Assembly: GCA_029258915.1 (NCBI GenBank)
Contig: JAPDJU010000005.1
Location: 201,797 to 265,796 of the forward strand
Source of the DNA: Thermoproteota archaeon
GTDB lineage: Archaea; Thermoproteota; Thermoprotei_A; EX4484-217-1
Length of the DNA stretch: 64,000 nt
Direction: 5' to 3'
Below the pieces are notes generated by a model that searched no databases, was not told where the DNA came from, and was given only the letters and a program-made list of their open reading frames with translations. This document shows, piece by piece, positions 3,117 through 27,771 of the stretch (position 1 is its first letter; every line of letters starts with the position of its first letter). The translations under genes and the position numbers were made by a program.

Positions 3117-4568
3117 ATGGATCAATATCTTATTTTAGCTTACTCATTAGCTATACTCACCTATTACCTAGGTGTCCTCATATATGCTATACCTATACCA
3201 TGGTGGGGTATTAAAAAATGGGCTCCAACCTTAATATATGATGCCCTGGCAGCTTCTCTCTTAGTTCTTATGTTTTCAACAATAGTTGAACTAGTTAATT
3301 ATTTAGGTTCTTTATTAAATGTTGACTGGCAAGTATATTTTGAATGGCTTACCAGTAGAATAGCTATTATGGGCTCGTTTATCTCATTTCTTATAACGCT
3401 TTCCCTAATGTTATCGAGCGCTGGTGTAAAAGCTGTTTCAACGGCTGTTCTTGGACCTATAATAAGCTTAGCTACGTATACCTTAATAGTATTGGAAATA
3501 TTTTTCATATTGGGTCTTGTTTTTAATCAGTTCTTTGCCAAGATAATGATAATAGGTATTCTACTTTACTCAATACCCTTCAGAATAGCTAGAGGAGCTG
3601 GGGCAGCTCTTGTAGCTATGTCCATAGTTTTTACACTAGCTTTACCTCTACTACCAGTTTTTACACATGCTTTTACCGTTCAAGGAGCTGAAGAAAGAAT
3701 ACTTGAAATAACGGAGAAAATGGATAAGGTAAATGTTGAAGAATGGGGAATAGTGTTTGTTAAAGGACATGTAACAGATAGGAAGGGTAAGCCTGTAAAC
3801 AACATATTAACAAAATGGTTTGCATTGCTTAAACAAAGCGAAGTATATGTAGCATCATATATGACGTTAGAAGATGGATGGTTTGATGCTGGAAGACCTT
3901 ACGGAGGGTTACCATATAATGTTATGTTAAAGTTGAAAGCAGAGTATTGTGGTGTAGAATTAACCCCAGAACCTAGAATAATAGACCCACATGCAGATTT
4001 TACCTATAATCCTCTTAAAGATCCCAATGCAGACTACTTTGTCGAAATAAAAATAAAGGACATGATAATTATCAGTAAATACTTTTTCGTAAAGTCAAAT
4101 AGCAACGAAGTACTTGACGCATTGAAAATTATTAAAGGAGACGATTTAGCAAACTTAAAATTTACAATAAGTAAACCTGCAACGGTAACATTGGTTATTC
4201 ACGAAGATTATAATGTTGATAAAGTCATAGTTAACAGTACTAAAGCTATAAGATACAGCAAAGTAAAAAACTGGGGAGGCGTTAGCTTCCAAATATACGA
4301 AGTATCCTTAAATGAAGGTACATGGGTGTTAAGCGTAAGAGTTAACTTTCAACGTGACGTTAAGGACCCTGAGATCACTGGTAAGGGCTATCTTGAAACT
4401 ATATCTAAAAATATAGGTGATTTCGAAGAGCTTGGCAAGGTCATTGCTAACGCTGTATTTGAATGGATAGTATTGCCTGGAACATATTTGTCAATACTTA
4501 TTATGTCTACGTATTCTCTAGCATATGTCATAGGCGGTAGGAAAATAAGGTTACCTATAAAAACGTGA
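3117..4568 (+). CDS. cedA: polytopic membrane protein with large extracytoplasmic domain, CedA-like (VirB6-like role)
   Basis: 483 aa with about 6 N-terminal TM helices, a soluble domain of roughly 250 aa and a C-terminal TM helix. It sits between two small 2-TM genes and upstream of a VirB4-like ATPase. Confidence 0.55.
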   Translation: MDQYLILAYSLAILTYYLGVLIYAIPIPWWGIKKWAPTLIYDALAASLLVLMFSTIVELVNYLGSLLNVDWQVYFEWLTSRIAIMGSFISFLITLSLMLSSAGVKAVSTAVLGPIISLATYTLIVLEIFFILGLVFNQFFAKIMIIGILLYSIPFRIARGAGAALVAMSIVFTLALPLLPVFTHAFTVQGAEERILEITEKMDKVNVEEWGIVFVKGHVTDRKGKPVNNILTKWFALLKQSEVYVASYMTLEDGWFDAGRPYGGLPYNVMLKLKAEYCGVELTPEPRIIDPHADFTYNPLKDPNADYFVEIKIKDMIIISKYFFVKSNSNEVLDALKIIKGDDLANLKFTISKPATVTLVIHEDYNVDKVIVNSTKAIRYSKVKNWGGVSFQIYEVSLNEGTWVLSVRVNFQRDVKDPEITGKGYLETISKNIGDFEELGKVIANAVFEWIVLPGTYLSILIMSTYSLAYVIGGRKIRLPIKT

Positions 4569-4772: not shown

Positions 4773-6636
4773 TAAAGTAATACCTTATATCCTTATAGTT
4801 TCTGGATTCATGATTTTCATTTTTACTATGAATTCTGCAGCTTTAATGAATAATTTATACATGGTACCAGTATTAATATTAGCTCTAGTGTGTTTGGTTA
4901 TTATAATGTCTAATAAGGATGCTTTAAAGAAGTTTATTAGAAGATCCAAGGAATATTATTTAAAAAACATAGGAGAATTCCATGTTGAAGACAATTTTGT
5001 GGTTGTTGCAGGTAAAAATATGTATAAAGGTGCTATCGTATATGTCGTTGATGAAATACCGTATACTTTCGCTGATGTCTCACATAGCTTCCTATTACAA
5101 CAGTTAAGGGCATTCACCAATTTCATAGTAGCATCAGAAGATAATATCTCAGTACTTCTTATAAAGAAGAGCAGTGATGCAAGGAAATATATTAAAAACC
5201 TAGAACGCACTATAACAAACTATAGAGTATTACTTTCAGCAGATCCAGCTAATCCATATGTTCAGAGAAAACTACAGAAACTTGAAGCAATATTTAACAG
5301 AGTAAGCAAAGGAGAAACACCTATTAACGTAAAGATATACTTAATAGCCTTTGCTTACGAAGCCAATATGAGAAAACTTTATGAAAAATTAAAGAGAAAA
5401 GGCGAAGCACTAGTATCATCTTTCAAAGCAAGCATGGGGTTAGAGATTAAAAAAGCAACAGAGGATGAAGTGTTAGAGGCCATAACCCATGGGCTATTAG
5501 GTAAAAGCAAGCCTTTAACAGTCCTAGAGTCCGATATAAGCTTCTTAACACCTATAGGTTACGTTAAAAGACCTAAAGTTTCTGGCGAAGGTATATTCTT
5601 AGGTGAAGACATAGACTATGGGACGCTAGTCTTCTATGACTTTGAAAAATATTTAACTAGGCACATGGTTATAGTAGGTCCCACAGGAAGAGGTAAAACA
5701 ACACTCCTTTACACTATTGCAAAAAGAGTTATGGAACAATATGATATACCGATATGGATTTTGGATTTAAGAGGAGAGTTTGAAGTATTAAATAAAGCCA
5801 TGGGAATAACCATAGTTGACCCTGAAAAATCACCTGTCAATCTATTGTTACCATGGTTTACCAGCCCTAAACTACGTGCTAAGCAGGTAGTAGATTTAAT
5901 TAAAGCATTAGCGGAACTAGAGCCCACTGAAGAATATATTCTTTTCATGGCAATTTTAAAGTCTTATGAACGAGCTCAACATCCTGATTTAGAAACTTTG
6001 ATAAATGTAATTAAGGAGGAATATTTAAACAGAGAATTGCAGCTGAAGTCATATACCTTGCTTACTAAGATCGAACAGTTAAACAGTAAGGTTTTCCTGC
6101 AAAGTAACTTTAATGATATGATGATTATAGTGAAGAAACCAATAATATTTGCTCTTTATAAATTACCTGAAGAATATAGAAAGATATATGCATTAGCCAT
6201 TTTACAAATATTAACGAATTATATGCTTACTCTAACGCCGACAAATAAGTTAAGGCATTTAGTAATAATAGATGAAGCATGGAGGCTAACAGATACTAAA
6301 GCTGGATCCAGGATCATTAGAAGCTTGGTTAAAGAAGGAAGAGGATATGGTTTAGCTGTTGCTTTAGCTTCTCAGGACATATCGGATTTCCCAAAAGACA
6401 TACTTGACAATGCCGGGACAGTAATAGTTTTCGGCTCTAATAGCAAAGACTATGTAGAAACAGTAGCTAAATACATGAAGCTTAATGATGATGAAAAAGA
6501 GAGAATGACATGGCTAAAAATAGGTGAAGCTTTAATAAGGATAACTGGTGATCCGAGACCTGTTTGGGTTAAGATAGTTCCAGAAAACATGGAGTACCAA
6601 GAAAAACCTCATGTAAGCAAAATCAGTAAAACATAA
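4750..6636 (+). CDS. cedB: membrane-anchored VirB4/HerA-FtsK superfamily ATPase, CedB-like
   Basis: 628 aa with N-terminal TM helices. Walker A is VGPTGRGKTT and Walker B is VIIDEAWRL. DEAW is the VirB4/TrbE-type signature. GTG start overlapping the upstream gene. Confidence 0.65.
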   Translation: MVIYVEGNKVIPYILIVSGFMIFIFTMNSAALMNNLYMVPVLILALVCLVIIMSNKDALKKFIRRSKEYYLKNIGEFHVEDNFVVVAGKNMYKGAIVYVVDEIPYTFADVSHSFLLQQLRAFTNFIVASEDNISVLLIKKSSDARKYIKNLERTITNYRVLLSADPANPYVQRKLQKLEAIFNRVSKGETPINVKIYLIAFAYEANMRKLYEKLKRKGEALVSSFKASMGLEIKKATEDEVLEAITHGLLGKSKPLTVLESDISFLTPIGYVKRPKVSGEGIFLGEDIDYGTLVFYDFEKYLTRHMVIVGPTGRGKTTLLYTIAKRVMEQYDIPIWILDLRGEFEVLNKAMGITIVDPEKSPVNLLLPWFTSPKLRAKQVVDLIKALAELEPTEEYILFMAILKSYERAQHPDLETLINVIKEEYLNRELQLKSYTLLTKIEQLNSKVFLQSNFNDMMIIVKKPIIFALYKLPEEYRKIYALAILQILTNYMLTLTPTNKLRHLVIIDEAWRLTDTKAGSRIIRSLVKEGRGYGLAVALASQDISDFPKDILDNAGTVIVFGSNSKDYVETVAKYMKLNDDEKERMTWLKIGEALIRITGDPRPVWVKIVPENMEYQEKPHVSKISKT

Positions 6637-6654
6637 TAAAAACACAGTATTATT

Positions 6655-6735
6655 TTAAGAAATGATCCGTGCAATCTAACCCCGCAAGGGTAGAGATGAG
6701 CACGGAGGTTGCCCCTAGGCAACACCCATTACCTT
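6655..6735 (+). ncRNA. GC-rich structured element immediately 3' of cedB (candidate small RNA or terminator structure)
   Basis: GC-rich island in an AT-rich background. It contains nested hairpins (CCGUGC...GCACGG enclosing CCC-GCAA-GGG, and GUUGCC-CCUA-GGCAAC). It shares the ordered motifs AAUGAUCC, AGAUGAG and GUUGCCC with 26684-26740. Confidence 0.3.
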
Positions 6736-6761
6736 CTAATTTCTCTCTACCAAAAATCTAA

Positions 6762-7304
6762 GTGGTGATCTTTTTGCATGAAAGAAGCAATATTATCCCT
6801 GTTCATGCAGAATCTTACTTCATAGTAGAGCGTAATGGTAAATTCAACCAAATACTAAAATATCAATACTACGACCCTGAAGAGTACTATTACACGCTCA
6901 TTCATAGACCTAGAGAATATTATAAAGAAATAAAGAGATTATACTCTGTTATGAATGAAGTGCTTAAGGAAGAAAGAGTATTAATCAATGAAAAACAAGT
7001 AAAGCTAAACGTAAAACTAGTAAACATAGACTTTGCTGGATACGTAGATCAGCCTTACATCCTATATTATATAAAGTTTAAAGGGCCTTTAAGAAAAGGT
7101 GTTAATATATTTGAAGACTTCTATGAGGAAACAGTAGCGGAGTACGATTATGAAGTATATTGGTTCTTTCCCGAACGTACAAAAATATTAGAAGTATATG
7201 TTGACGGCGATTTTGACTTAGTAAATAGTAATAAGTTGTTTATTTGGGCTCGAAAAGGCGATAAAATATCGGGATATGAGAAAATAATCTTTATGCTTTC
7301 TTAA
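6762..7304 (+). CDS. hypothetical protein (Tyr/Glu-rich)
   Basis: 180-aa ORF with no recognisable motif. Confidence 0.4.
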   Translation: MVIFLHERSNIIPVHAESYFIVERNGKFNQILKYQYYDPEEYYYTLIHRPREYYKEIKRLYSVMNEVLKEERVLINEKQVKLNVKLVNIDFAGYVDQPYILYYIKFKGPLRKGVNIFEDFYEETVAEYDYEVYWFFPERTKILEVYVDGDFDLVNSNKLFIWARKGDKISGYEKIIFMLS

Positions 7305-8427
7305 GCCTTAAAACCTCCTTATAATACTTAACTAATGGGTTTTTAACATTACATTCTTCAACACATAAGCCTAGAGTTTTCATAGTGTTACAGTTGTATG
7401 GTTTGTATTTTTTTCTAGAACCTCTTAAGCCTGCAAGGTGTTCAACCTGGTATCGAGCTATGGTTTCGTTAAAATCAGGTGTTTTCCTGAAAATATTAAC
7501 AACAGCATTTACATCTAAACCTATATTAAGAAGGAACGTAGCTAAAGCAAATCTAGCATGATGCGAAATGTGTTTTCCTTCTACAACATCCTGGTAAAGC
7601 AGTTTTATGCATGGAGGAAAAGCTTCAGAAACCACTATACCTAAGCTTCTAAGTTCTTCAAAACGTTCTTTCATGCTTGCATAAAGCGCATAATGTACAT
7701 GCTTTTTCCTTATCTCATTTATTTCTGCTTCTAAACTATCTAATAGACTTCTTATTACATTAGGTACTTCATCTTTACCTAGAGGCTTAACTTGTTTTTC
7801 AATAGTATCTGCTATTATTTCAACAAGATATCTAACTGCCTTTTCCTTAGTTAAGTAGACATAGCCGTCAGAAACTAGTTGATTTACAAGCTTCCATGAA
7901 GGATCACTATGTAACCTTAACGATTTAAGATAGTCCTTAACATGAACCTTAAAAGAAAACTCTACAGTGAAAACCTTATCCTTACCGATAAAATAAGGTA
8001 CTTTCAGAGGTTTAGATTCTATATTGTCTAAGAATACGCCTAGTCTATTAGCTATCATAGATAATGTAGCGTTATCTTCATTGGCTAAATGTTTTCTTAT
8101 TCTTTCAGCTTCAAAGATAGCGTATCTTCGAGTAAGCCATTTATCACTAACAACAGATAAAACTACTATGCTTATATAATATGATATGATTTCCTCATCG
8201 TCAGAAATTCTTAATGCATCAGGTATTTTCCCTTTTATAGCGCCTAAAACTCTCTCTCTAACTCTGGTTCTAACATTACTTATATTCATGTTTTTTAAAA
8301 TGTCCATGAAGCTTAATTTTACACCGTACTTTAATTTAAAGTACTGCACAGGGTTAATTAAAAAAGGGTATTTTGCGTAGTCTAAATATATTTTAAACTT
8401 CATTATATTGGCATTTAGCTTTTTCAT
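7291..8427 (-). CDS. priL: DNA primase large subunit PriL
   Basis: 378 aa. The C-terminal region HISHHARFALATFLLNIGL...KYKPYNCNTMKTLGLC matches the PriL Fe-S cluster domain. Confidence 0.8.
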   Translation of the reverse strand: MKKLNANIMKFKIYLDYAKYPFLINPVQYFKLKYGVKLSFMDILKNMNISNVRTRVRERVLGAIKGKIPDALRISDDEEIISYYISIVVLSVVSDKWLTRRYAIFEAERIRKHLANEDNATLSMIANRLGVFLDNIESKPLKVPYFIGKDKVFTVEFSFKVHVKDYLKSLRLHSDPSWKLVNQLVSDGYVYLTKEKAVRYLVEIIADTIEKQVKPLGKDEVPNVIRSLLDSLEAEINEIRKKHVHYALYASMKERFEELRSLGIVVSEAFPPCIKLLYQDVVEGKHISHHARFALATFLLNIGLDVNAVVNIFRKTPDFNETIARYQVEHLAGLRGSRKKYKPYNCNTMKTLGLCVEECNVKNPLVKYYKEVLRLKKA

Positions 8428-24237: not shown

Positions 24238-24357
24238 CGCCCCCTAACACCCCCCTCTTGGGGGATTACCCCCCCATAGCATTTAAAGTTTACCCTTAAA
24301 GAAATGTAAGAATAGAATATAAACAATGTAAAAAGCAGTGTAGAAAATGGGATTCAT

Positions 24358-26126: not shown

Positions 26127-26423
26127 ATGTATAGTAAAAAAGCATATTTTGACTACTTTTATAAAATTTTAAAATCTTTAAAAAGCAAGGAGATAAGTAA
26201 CGAAGAAGAAAAGAAAGTAACACTATATTTTATCAGAAATATTTCTGTTGGAGAAATATTGGCTTTAAGAGAATTAGAGATCTTAGGTGTTAAAAATCCC
26301 TCAAAAGTTATCAGGACACTTATTCTGAAAGGTGTTTTAGAAAAAGGTGAGGGATGTTACAATTTAGCTAAGGATATAAGAGAAGAACTATTTATGTTAA
26401 AACGTAAGGGCAGAGACATATAG
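26127..26423 (+). CDS. small winged-helix-like hypothetical protein
   Basis: 98-aa ORF. Confidence 0.4.
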   Translation: MYSKKAYFDYFYKILKSLKSKEISNEEEKKVTLYFIRNISVGEILALRELEILGVKNPSKVIRTLILKGVLEKGEGCYNLAKDIREELFMLKRKGRDI

Positions 26424-26489
26424 TGTTGTATTTGTAAGTTTTAAATGTTTTTGTTTCATTAGATGGAGTTGCATTGAAGCTTTAGAAAA

Positions 26490-26800
26490 GATGGATGTGC
26501 GAAGCCCCGTCCCCGCGAAAGCCCCCTAATGAAACCGAAGGGAGGAAGGTTTGCCATTACAAAAGCTACCAAATATTCCGAAAGTAGCAGCAAACTATAA
26601 CGGCTAATTAAAGTATAGGCTGTTACAAATTTTACGGTAAATTTAAACATTTCAGAATACTTCTAAACCATGAAACATTTCTTAATGATCCCCATTGCGG
26701 TGAGGAGCTTCAGATGAGAGGGCTGTGGCGTTGCCCTCGACAGAGCCCCATGAGGTGCGGGTGAAGCTAATGAACTCACACCAAGGGCTAACCCCCTCAC
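26490..26800 (+). ncRNA. about 300-bp non-coding island with GC-rich structured ends; candidate stable RNA gene(s) of unresolved identity
   Basis: It lies between convergent genes and has no convincing ORF. The GC-rich segments at 26495-26560 and 26684-26795 are unusual in a roughly 34% GC genome. It has multiple hairpins (UAAUG-AAACC[GAAGGGAGGAA]GGUUU..CAUUA, GGUUUGC...GCAAACU, GAGGGC...GCCCUC). The strand is uncertain. Confidence 0.35.
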
Positions 26801-26820
26801 AAAATTAAAAATAACTAAAA

Positions 26821-27771
26821 TTACCTAAAAGTACCGTGAGGGGAGAAACGCTTGTACTCTATTCCTTCTAAGTACTTAACATCACCATAACTTATCTCCC
26901 AAACTTTTCCCTTGCTATCTTCTATAACTAGTTTGCCTCTTGGTGAGATGTCTAGCACTGTGCCTTCAACTACTAAATGGTTTATTTTTACAGCTATTTT
27001 CCTACCTATTGTTAAGTTCATTCTTCTCCATAAATTAATAATATCTTCCGCACTTGTTTTCTCTAGTATCCTAGCTACTTCTAAGGCTATGGCTTTAAGT
27101 ATTACATTTCTCGGCATATTGAAGCCTAAAATTTCAGATAGCGATATAACTCCTTGTAGCCCTGAAAATTTCATTTTATTATTAACATTTAATCCTATAC
27201 CTATAATGCTAAGAACTTTATCATCTTTAAACATGTTCTCTATAAGTATTCCTCCTATTTTCTTTGCTAAAAACATTATGTCATTAGGCCATTTAAGTTT
27301 AAAATCTATTAACAGTAGTTTCTTAAGTGCATTTACTACAGCAACACCTACGGCTAGACTTAGAATCTCTAATAATTCTTTTCTTTCTACTTGCCATAGT
27401 ATTGATAACCATATGCCTCCTGGAGGTGATAACCATATCCTTCCGGCTCTACCTCTTCCCTTGGTCTGTACTTCTGAAAAAATTATTGCCCTACTATAGT
27501 TGTCTACGACTTTTTTTACATAGCTCATTGTTGAATCTATAGAGTAAAAGTACTTGATGAGCTGGAAACCTATACTTTTTAGAAGCGTATCATTCTCTAA
27601 TAATTTCATATTATCCGAAAAGTTTCCGCAAACACTGTCATTTTTAAACGTAATGGATTCAAGAGTTAATAAGTAATTTATAAGTTCATGAGGTAAACTG
27701 CTTCGTTGAATGCATTTATTATTGTAAAGATTTTTAATTGCACTTAACGTACTTGAACTTGAATTTGTCAA
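26821..27771 (-). CDS. birA: biotin--protein ligase BirA
   Basis: 316 aa with the biotin-ligase signature TKGRGRAGRIWLSPPGGIWLS. It is divergent from accC. Confidence 0.8.
   Translation of the reverse strand: MTNSSSSTLSAIKNLYNNKCIQRSSLPHELINYLLTLESITFKNDSVCGNFSDNMKLLENDTLLKSIGFQLIKYFYSIDSTMSYVKKVVDNYSRAIIFSEVQTKGRGRAGRIWLSPPGGIWLSILWQVERKELLEILSLAVGVAVVNALKKLLLIDFKLKWPNDIMFLAKKIGGILIENMFKDDKVLSIIGIGLNVNNKMKFSGLQGVISLSEILGFNMPRNVILKAIALEVARILEKTSAEDIINLWRRMNLTIGRKIAVKINHLVVEGTVLDISPRGKLVIEDSKGKVWEISYGDVKYLEGIEYKRFSPHGTFR

Follow-up and report, generated by a model that had tools for sequence, protein, structure and literature searches.

The window analysed here, by which we mean the whole stretch of 64,000 nucleotides, has a GC content of 35%. 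Close to one end it carries cedB, followed on the same strand by a conserved ORF of 176 amino acids and, convergent with and overlapping this ORF, priL. Between cedB and the ORF lies a conspicuously GC-rich stretch, referred to as island 1 in the following. An earlier, sequence-only reading had put it at about 55% GC over some 80 nt; this figure is right for 6661-6725 (55.4%), whereas 6655-6735 comes to 50.6%. The same reading had assumed a Sulfolobales context, but the nearest named relatives, as judged by CedB, are uncultured Desulfurococcales MAGs. The features of the locus are as follows.

6633-6641, + strand: A/T-rich box ATAATAAAA over the cedB stop codons, a candidate TATA box
6664-6750 (ends approximate), + strand: island 1, conserved structured RNA element (covariance model match, orthologues)
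6667-6705, + strand: three-part hairpin (MFE fold, covariation over 12 sequences)
6667-6672/6700-6705, + strand: P1, CCGUGC/GCACGG
6674-6677/6694-6697, + strand: P1b, a short AUCU/AGAU helix
6679-6682/6688-6691, + strand: P2, a CCC/GGG hairpin
6691-6699, + strand: 3' strand of the internal loop, UAGAGAUGA, with the box-C'-like GAGAUGA
6673-6679, + strand: the strand facing it, AAUCUAA, with the box-D'-like CUAA at 6676-6679
6708-6723, + strand: GUUGCC-CCUA-GGCAAC hairpin, specific to the window lineage
6710-6720, + strand: conserved single-stranded tail (UG)CCCCUAGGC, CACC(C/U)CUAGGC in orthologues
6732-6752, + strand: pyrimidine/U-rich tract 3' of the element, present in all orthologues
6764-6770, + strand: SD GGUGAUC (GAGGAUGAU in the other clade)
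6774-7304, + strand: conserved 176-aa ORF with a UUG start at 6774
7291-8427, - strand: priL, convergent and overlapping with the 176-aa ORF

The gene order cedA-cedB-[element]-ORF-priL, with priL on the opposite strand, is kept across contigs (designated by L numbers) in which CedB is 96% to 50% identical. Island 1 itself is represented by 12 distinct sequences from uncultured Desulfurococcales, every one of them located between the cedB stop and the 176-aa ORF and on the same strand. Scored with a covariance model, the orthologues reach 70-93 bits in this slot, the exceptions being L001, which is rearranged (47.5 bits), and L029, which is interrupted. A strict pattern scan over one genome per species returned five Desulfurococcales MAGs, with one match each, and three chance bacterial matches. 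In lineages that have the ORF-priL pair and no cedB, the element is missing too. The L001 locus (5830-6211; CedB 89% identical) has a block of about 220 extra nucleotides at the 3' end of cedB, and its element diverges past GGAGGUCGCC and continues as GUUCACCUCAG, with the contig end close by; this may represent another rearrangement or insertion.

The flanks are conserved as well. Boxes equivalent to that over the cedB stop codons (AAATATAAG, AAATAAAAAAG, ATATAATAAAAC) lie about 30 nt 5' of the conserved block in all orthologues, which corresponds to the usual archaeal distance between TATA box and transcription start, so that the box would be a plausible promoter element. The tract that follows the element includes T5 runs in L005 and L019, and T3-T4 only in the window, L002 and L004. 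The 20-50 nt that separate the element from the SD showed no better promoter. The SD and the UUG start of the ORF are found at the equivalent place in all orthologues (GUG in L035, by eye). Pfam contains no domain that matches homologs of the ORF product. AF2 confidently models the protein as a beta-sandwich (pLDDT 94), for which Foldseek searches against the PDB gave generic beta-sandwich matches only (TM ≤ 0.48), none of them informative. The ORF adjoins priL even in lineages without cedB, and its product may be a primase-associated protein.

The fold that had been proposed for island 1, in which CCGUGC/GCACGG encloses the CCC/GGG hairpin and is followed by GUUGCC/GGCAAC, is also the MFE fold. 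For 6655-6745 on the + strand, it has an energy of -31.6 kcal/mol (z -4.7), and 0 of 200 shuffled sequences were as stable. The minus strand fares slightly worse against its shuffles (z -3.4), and U-G pairs would become A-C mismatches there; an RNA from this strand was therefore rejected, and the G-U pairs found in orthologues likewise favour the + strand. Over the 12 distinct sequences, the hairpin is paired in 94.6% of cells, compared with at most 58% in slid controls, and its covariation score is equalled by 0 of 500 shuffles. Compensatory changes are seen at three pairs of the hairpin, namely 6666/6706 (U-A/C-G), 6672/6700 (C-G/U-A) and 6675/6696 (U-A/C-G). In the internal loop, G6693, U6697, G6698 and A6699 are invariant on the 3' strand, as are A6674, C6676 and A6679 on the opposite one. 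Similarly, in the 9-nt tail block CCCCUAGGC (6712-6720), C6712, C6713 and CUAGGC at 6715-6720 are invariant, and position 6714 is either C or U. The GUUGCC/GGCAAC hairpin forms with 6/6 bp in the window, 5/6 in L025 and at most 4/6 in L002, L003 and others when counted by eye, and it is not among the RNAalifold predictions. In several orthologues, inspection suggests a helix GGAGGU/ACCUUC that closes around the tail, but this helix overlaps P1, and the alignment of the 3' region is too poor for counting it. Island 1 is a real, conserved, single-copy structured RNA element, restricted to one Desulfurococcales lineage. As had been suggested, it is also unannotated: a search of Rfam gave 0 matches at gathering score in the 64-kb window, and only chance-level matches were obtained in E-value mode for this island, for the second island described below and for orthologues. 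No tRNA or tmRNA was found in the window either.

The sequence-only reading had gone further and treated island 1 and a second GC-rich stretch, island 2 (26684-26740), as two copies of one small-RNA family, defined by AAUGAUCC, AGAUGAG and GUUGCCC in this order. On recount, the motifs are exactly where they had been placed: AATGATCC at 6661-6668 and 26684-26691, AGATGAG at 6694-6700 and 26712-26718, and GTTGCCC at 6708-6714 and 26730-26736. None of the three is over-represented in the window by itself. The chain had been considered unlikely by chance, and it is indeed rare for this island pair alone (2 of 20,000 shuffles); corrected for the approximately 380 island pairs and orientations among 20 GC-rich islands, however, the value is a borderline 0.04 or so, and 388 locus pairs within the window have three ordered 7-mers in common at similar spacing. 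Several further results speak against a common family. A gapped local alignment of the two islands reaches a score of 16, which 441 of 2000 shuffles match or exceed (z 0.6). The covariance model CM R1, built on six island-1 orthologues and run over the whole window with filters off, finds 6660-6750 as its sole match (94.5 bits) and nothing at 26684-26740 at E ≤ 10. Moreover, two of the three motifs are peculiar to the window lineage: in the orthologues of island 1, AAUGAUCC is replaced by AAAUGAAACC, AAAUAGAACC or unrelated sequence, and GUUGCCC by UCACC(C/U)C. AGAUGAG is the only motif that is partly kept, being conserved in its (A/G)(A/G)UGA part. The structural positions also differ: in island 1, a hairpin has GUUGCC as its 5' arm, whereas in island 2 this motif makes up a 3' arm. 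The latter (26678-26805) folds with a z of -0.56, neither strand being better than shuffles. Since it is, in addition, part of an unrelated recent insertion, the islands are not copies of one small-RNA family, and we regard the two-copy interpretation as exceedingly improbable. The case is a worked caution that ordered exact k-mers common to two GC-rich islands are weak evidence for homology in an AT-rich window of 64 kb.

Island 2 lies inside two adjacent recent, lineage-specific insertions at the ends of birA and PBP2, which are unrelated to island 1:

~26411-26601, + strand: insert B, which replaces the last PBP2 codons
26602-26620: remnant of the ancestral birA/PBP2 overlap, GGCTAATTAAAGTATAGGC, a 19-nt exact match to L010 and L011
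~26621-26849, + strand: insert A, which replaces the last birA codons and holds island 2 (26684-26740)

The empty site is seen in L010 and L011 (BirA 90% identical) as well as in L012-L015 (61%), where the convergent birA and PBP2 overlap by 11 nt; in L009 (BirA 100% identical), the contig breaks inside insert A. The C-terminus of PBP2 in the window (26397-26423) reads ..KRKGRDI instead of ..KRKGLIKV, and BirA (26821-26860) is 316 rather than 310 residues long, with the insert-derived end ..KRFSPHGTFR. We found no further copy of the inserts in the window, no terminal inverted repeats at the ends of either insert, no target-site duplication (the junctions are ambiguous by 1-2 nt only) and no target motif common to the junction sequences; an IS200/IS605 (PATE- or omega-RNA-like) origin of the inserts was considered in this connection. 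Insert B contains a perfect 10-nt inverted repeat, GTTTCATTAG/CTAATGAAAC (26453-26462 and 26526-26535); CTAATGAA (26526-26533) recurs in insert A (26767-26774), next to a similar ..AGCCCC block, which hints that A and B are diverged copies of one element. ORFs inside island 2 are spurious and were not found in the protein collection. A hammerhead reading of CAGAUGAG...GACAG in insert A was discarded as well, as it fails the general hammerhead core consensus by inspection and has no Rfam match. Elsewhere in the window (24238-24290), a short intergenic stretch with C runs and a CCCCCCUCUUGGGGG hairpin reaches 58% GC over 50 nt, likewise with no Rfam match.

Comparable insertions are found in the relatives. 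In L029 (2316-2560), a non-coding insertion of about 245 nt splits the island-1 orthologue, separating its hairpin (..GCACGGGAGACU) from its tail (UCACCCCUAGGC), and ends in GCACGGGCAACCACU, a mimic of the displaced sequence. L031 has a related insertion of about 290 nt (~7566-7855, - strand) between GTGTAGAG and CGTATATTGC, a site that is empty in L028 and L030, and a related element in L024 (4086-4260, - strand) lies just downstream of cedB. These three copies have the end GTGGTTGCCCGTGC in common. A clear relationship exists between the inserts of L029 and L031 (z 12; nhmmer 4e-7), and for both of them a relative shows the empty site. The window inserts resemble each other and the L029 insert weakly, though above shuffle level (z 3.4-4.4; for insert A, 3.7 to B and 3.4 to L029). 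A profile was built on the three clearer copies, and it recovers insert A with no better than E 0.11, so that the membership of this insert in the family is tentative. The inserts follow a shared layout, with an AT-rich 5' part, a GC-rich core (RAUGAU...GGUGA...AGAUG) and a 3' hairpin, whose stem differs from copy to copy (CCCGUGCAUGG/CCAUGCACGGG, CCCGCGC/GCACGGG, CCCCUCAC/GUGAGGGG, GUUUGC/GCAAAC) and whose loop is A-rich and 35-45 nt long. Scans of viral contigs with two insertion-element patterns gave 0 matches.

Two known systems invite comparison with these elements. Like the MITE-like sRNA elements of Pyrobaculum calidifontis (PMC6009581), island 2 belongs to short, non-coding, lineage-specific insertions at gene ends or in intergenic regions, with sRNA-like GC-rich cores and several diverged copies; unlike them, inserts A and B have neither terminal inverted repeats nor canonical C/D boxes, and the similarity between copies is weak (z 3.4-4.4). 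The L031 element matches Sso133 (Sulfolobus sRNA133, Rfam RF02814) with 21.2 bits (E 0.07), well short of the gathering threshold of 44 bits. The matching part is a GC-rich hairpin that can be read as k-turn-like, CGAGGGGAG...CUCCCGUAGGCGG. The window islands show no such match, and a literature search on Sso133 found no paper.

For island 1, the sequence-only reading had considered a non-canonical box C/C'-like (k-turn) RNA. The internal loop indeed presents C'/D'-like boxes, GAGAUGA opposite CUAA (CUGA in L002), although island 1 does not qualify as a canonical box C/D RNA. The D'-like box is CUAA in most sequences, CUGA in L002, CUCA in L005 and L017, and C-AA in L004, and the C'-like box is GAUGA, GGUGA, AAUGA or AGUGA. 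Read as a k-turn in the C'/D' register, position 1b.1n is G.A in 10 of the 12 sequences; 2b.2n is the canonical A.G only in L002, A.A in six and G.A or G.C in another four; the only G.A of L031 is at 2b.2n. A canonical CUGA/GAUGA k-turn is accordingly confined to L002, and the covariation at 6675/6696 (U-A, C-G) favours a plain Watson-Crick helix over the k-turn register. We also rejected an H/ACA sRNA, since AGG, GGG or GAG follows the stem in place of an ACA box, and the upper stem has 3-5 bp with a plain loop and no k-turn.

The closest functional parallel is offered by archaeal 5' leaders in which L7Ae-bound k-turn hairpins regulate translation (Daume et al. 2017, PMC5539422; Huang, Ashraf and Lilley 2019, PMC6298567). 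Island 1 resembles them in being a short hairpin in what would be an SD-led leader and in its GA-rich internal-loop strands, with GAUGA opposite CUGA or CUAA, and a switch between an open and a protein-stabilised state has been proposed for them as we propose it here. The differences are equally clear: the known leaders have a 3-nt bulge followed by tandem G.A/A.G pairs, which are canonical only in L002 for island 1; their SD lies inside or beside the hairpin rather than some 45-60 nt away; the hairpin of island 1 is intrinsically stable; and the gene downstream of it is not l7ae. As a structured RNA motif, island 1 is new and confined to its clade, though familiar in its general kind.

Because an SD precedes the UUG start of the ORF (GUG in L035) in all orthologues, the ORF needs RNA upstream of it, and if island 1 is on this transcript, it is a 5' leader or an intercistronic element. 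We tentatively favour this reading, to which we give a little less than an even chance, with the hairpin as a binding platform that possibly toggles with the tail. From the arrangement of the conserved parts, we infer where transcription begins and ends, what binds and what is regulated as follows. The transcript would either be started from the A/T box that overlaps the stop codon of cedB or arise by read-through from cedB. The three-part hairpin, with its purine-rich internal loops (GAGAUGA facing CUAA, or CUGA in L002), would offer a protein such as L7Ae a platform to bind. The 3' loop strand could, in most orthologues, swap its partner for the invariant tail CCCCUAGGC: a stabilised hairpin would leave the tail free, and an opened one would allow it to be sequestered. 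The output may be a change in whether the U-rich tract is read through or in how accessible the SD is.

The alternative helix rests on the complementarity of the loop strand UAG(A/G)G(A/G)UG (6691-6698) to the tail sequence CACC(C/U)CUA. It can form with 8/8 pairs in L005, L017, L019 and L030 and with 7/8 in L002, L021, L003, L007 and L031, that is, in 9 of the 12 sequences; overall, 86.5% of its cells are paired, with one compensatory pair, and 57 of 500 shuffles equal its score, so that it is statistically no more than suggestive. L002 and L021 carry a matched double change from G to A and from C to U, which turns a G-C pair into A-U. The helix excludes P1b and places the 3' strand of P1 in its loop. 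Energetically, it equals the hairpin in L002, L021 and L003; the hairpin has an advantage of 9-12 kcal/mol in the L005 clade, and the helix is poor in the window itself and in L004 (-9.9 versus -30.0 kcal/mol). In the MFE fold of L002 and L021, and of those two only, the linker and the tail are paired with the SD. Further points against a leader are that lineages which have ORF-priL and lack cedB have no element, and that the T5 runs after the element in some orthologues would suit a separate short sRNA equally well.

Such a stand-alone sRNA of about 80 nt, perhaps a degenerate descendant of a box C/D sRNA that has retained no more than an internal C'/D' k-turn module with its closing stem, is ranked directly behind the leader reading; we consider it possible, though doubtful. 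It could be cut from the cedB-ORF transcript in the manner of C/D sRNAs, and it could act in trans through its invariant tail CCCCUAGGC, a single-stranded 9-mer that resembles a seed, or simply as an L7Ae-bound RNP. The A/T box some 30 nt 5' and the U-rich runs 3' (T5 in L005 and L019) would fit an independent transcript, and the C'/D'-like GAGAUGA/CUAA (CUGA in L002) would fit its descent. In addition, three more distant relatives carry a canonical C/D box sRNA in the very slot between cedB and the ORF (L035: 1219-1279; L034: ~2780-2850; L024: ~4030-4085), with the boxes AUGAUGA...UUGA...AUGAGA...GGUGGCGGCUGU-CUGA. The cedB stop codon comes from the box C of this sRNA, an arrangement described for archaeal box C/D sRNAs of Pyrobaculum (Lui et al. 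2018, PMC6009581), and the L035 copy matches seven Rfam C/D families below threshold. Island 1 shares with such sRNAs its position directly 3' of a stop codon on the same strand and its C'/D'-like boxes around a small hairpin. It differs from them in several respects. Box D is missing, as there is no CUGA between 6700 and 6760; the box-C-like AUGAUCC matches 5/7 of RUGAUGA and is not conserved; the spacing is 8 nt from the box-C-like to the D'-like box and more than 30 nt after C', with no D box within 12 nt, where 12 nt are expected; the two would-be guide regions pair with each other to form P1; and at E ≤ 10, neither the window nor L005 yields an Rfam C/D family that coincides with the element. 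For these reasons, a canonical box C/D sRNA was rejected, and so was homology to the L035, L034 and L024 sRNAs, with which island 1 has no significant similarity (z ≤ 1.5). Likewise, no target was identified, the rRNA genes lying outside the window, and the ORF would still require a promoter of its own or read-through. Of the three relatives, L024 has its insertion element abutting the 3' guide of the sRNA. L069 has ORF-priL but no cedB; in the intergenic DNA upstream (2880-2940, - strand), the opposite strand bears what can be read as a canonical C/D box sRNA, with GUGACGA-12 nt-CUGA-AAAC-UGAUGA-12 nt-CUGA.

Lastly, island 1 could matter mainly as DNA, being either left over from the small insertion elements of this clade or preferentially targeted by them, in which case its RNA-like structure would be incidental. 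The element of about 245 nt sits between hairpin and tail in L029, and another copy lies just downstream of cedB in L024. Furthermore, the 3' hairpin of the elements in L029, L031 and L024 uses the P1 stem of that clade, CCCG(U/C)GC...GCACGGG, and is followed by CAACCAC, compared with AGACUCCAC in island 1. Against this, the similarity between island 1 and the inserts is confined to the 7-nt stem (z ≤ 0.6, except for 2.3 with L031), the L031 copy resides at an unrelated site, and the compensatory changes together with single-copy conservation down to 50% CedB identity argue for selection on the RNA fold. We therefore judge this explanation to be very unlikely.

Descriptions of cis-acting or structured regulatory RNAs are, to our knowledge, scarce for Crenarchaeota and scarcer still for uncultured Desulfurococcales. 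Two broader interpretations deserve mention in this light, and it is rather unlikely, though far from negligible, that at least one of them applies. In the one, island 1 would be a new class of archaeal cis-regulatory RNA, in which a hairpin stabilised by a protein or ligand competes with an alternative helix that involves the invariant, anti-SD-like tail (UCACCUC/UCACCCC), and the gene under its control would be the conserved but uncharacterised partner of the primase large subunit gene. In the other, the clade would possess an undescribed family of non-coding insertion elements of 200-300 nt without terminal inverted repeats, built from a structured, GC-rich RNA core and a 3' hairpin with an A-rich loop. 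Its members would insert themselves at the ends of genes and into sRNA genes, one of these being an island-1 orthologue. Island 1 is directly accessible to experimental tests, since its fold and its neighbouring gene are defined and twelve natural variants are available. Finally, the slot that a canonical C/D sRNA occupies in some lineages is taken by the island-1 hairpin in others, and this exchange, together with the small structured insertions, bears on how small-RNA genes move and are replaced in archaea.
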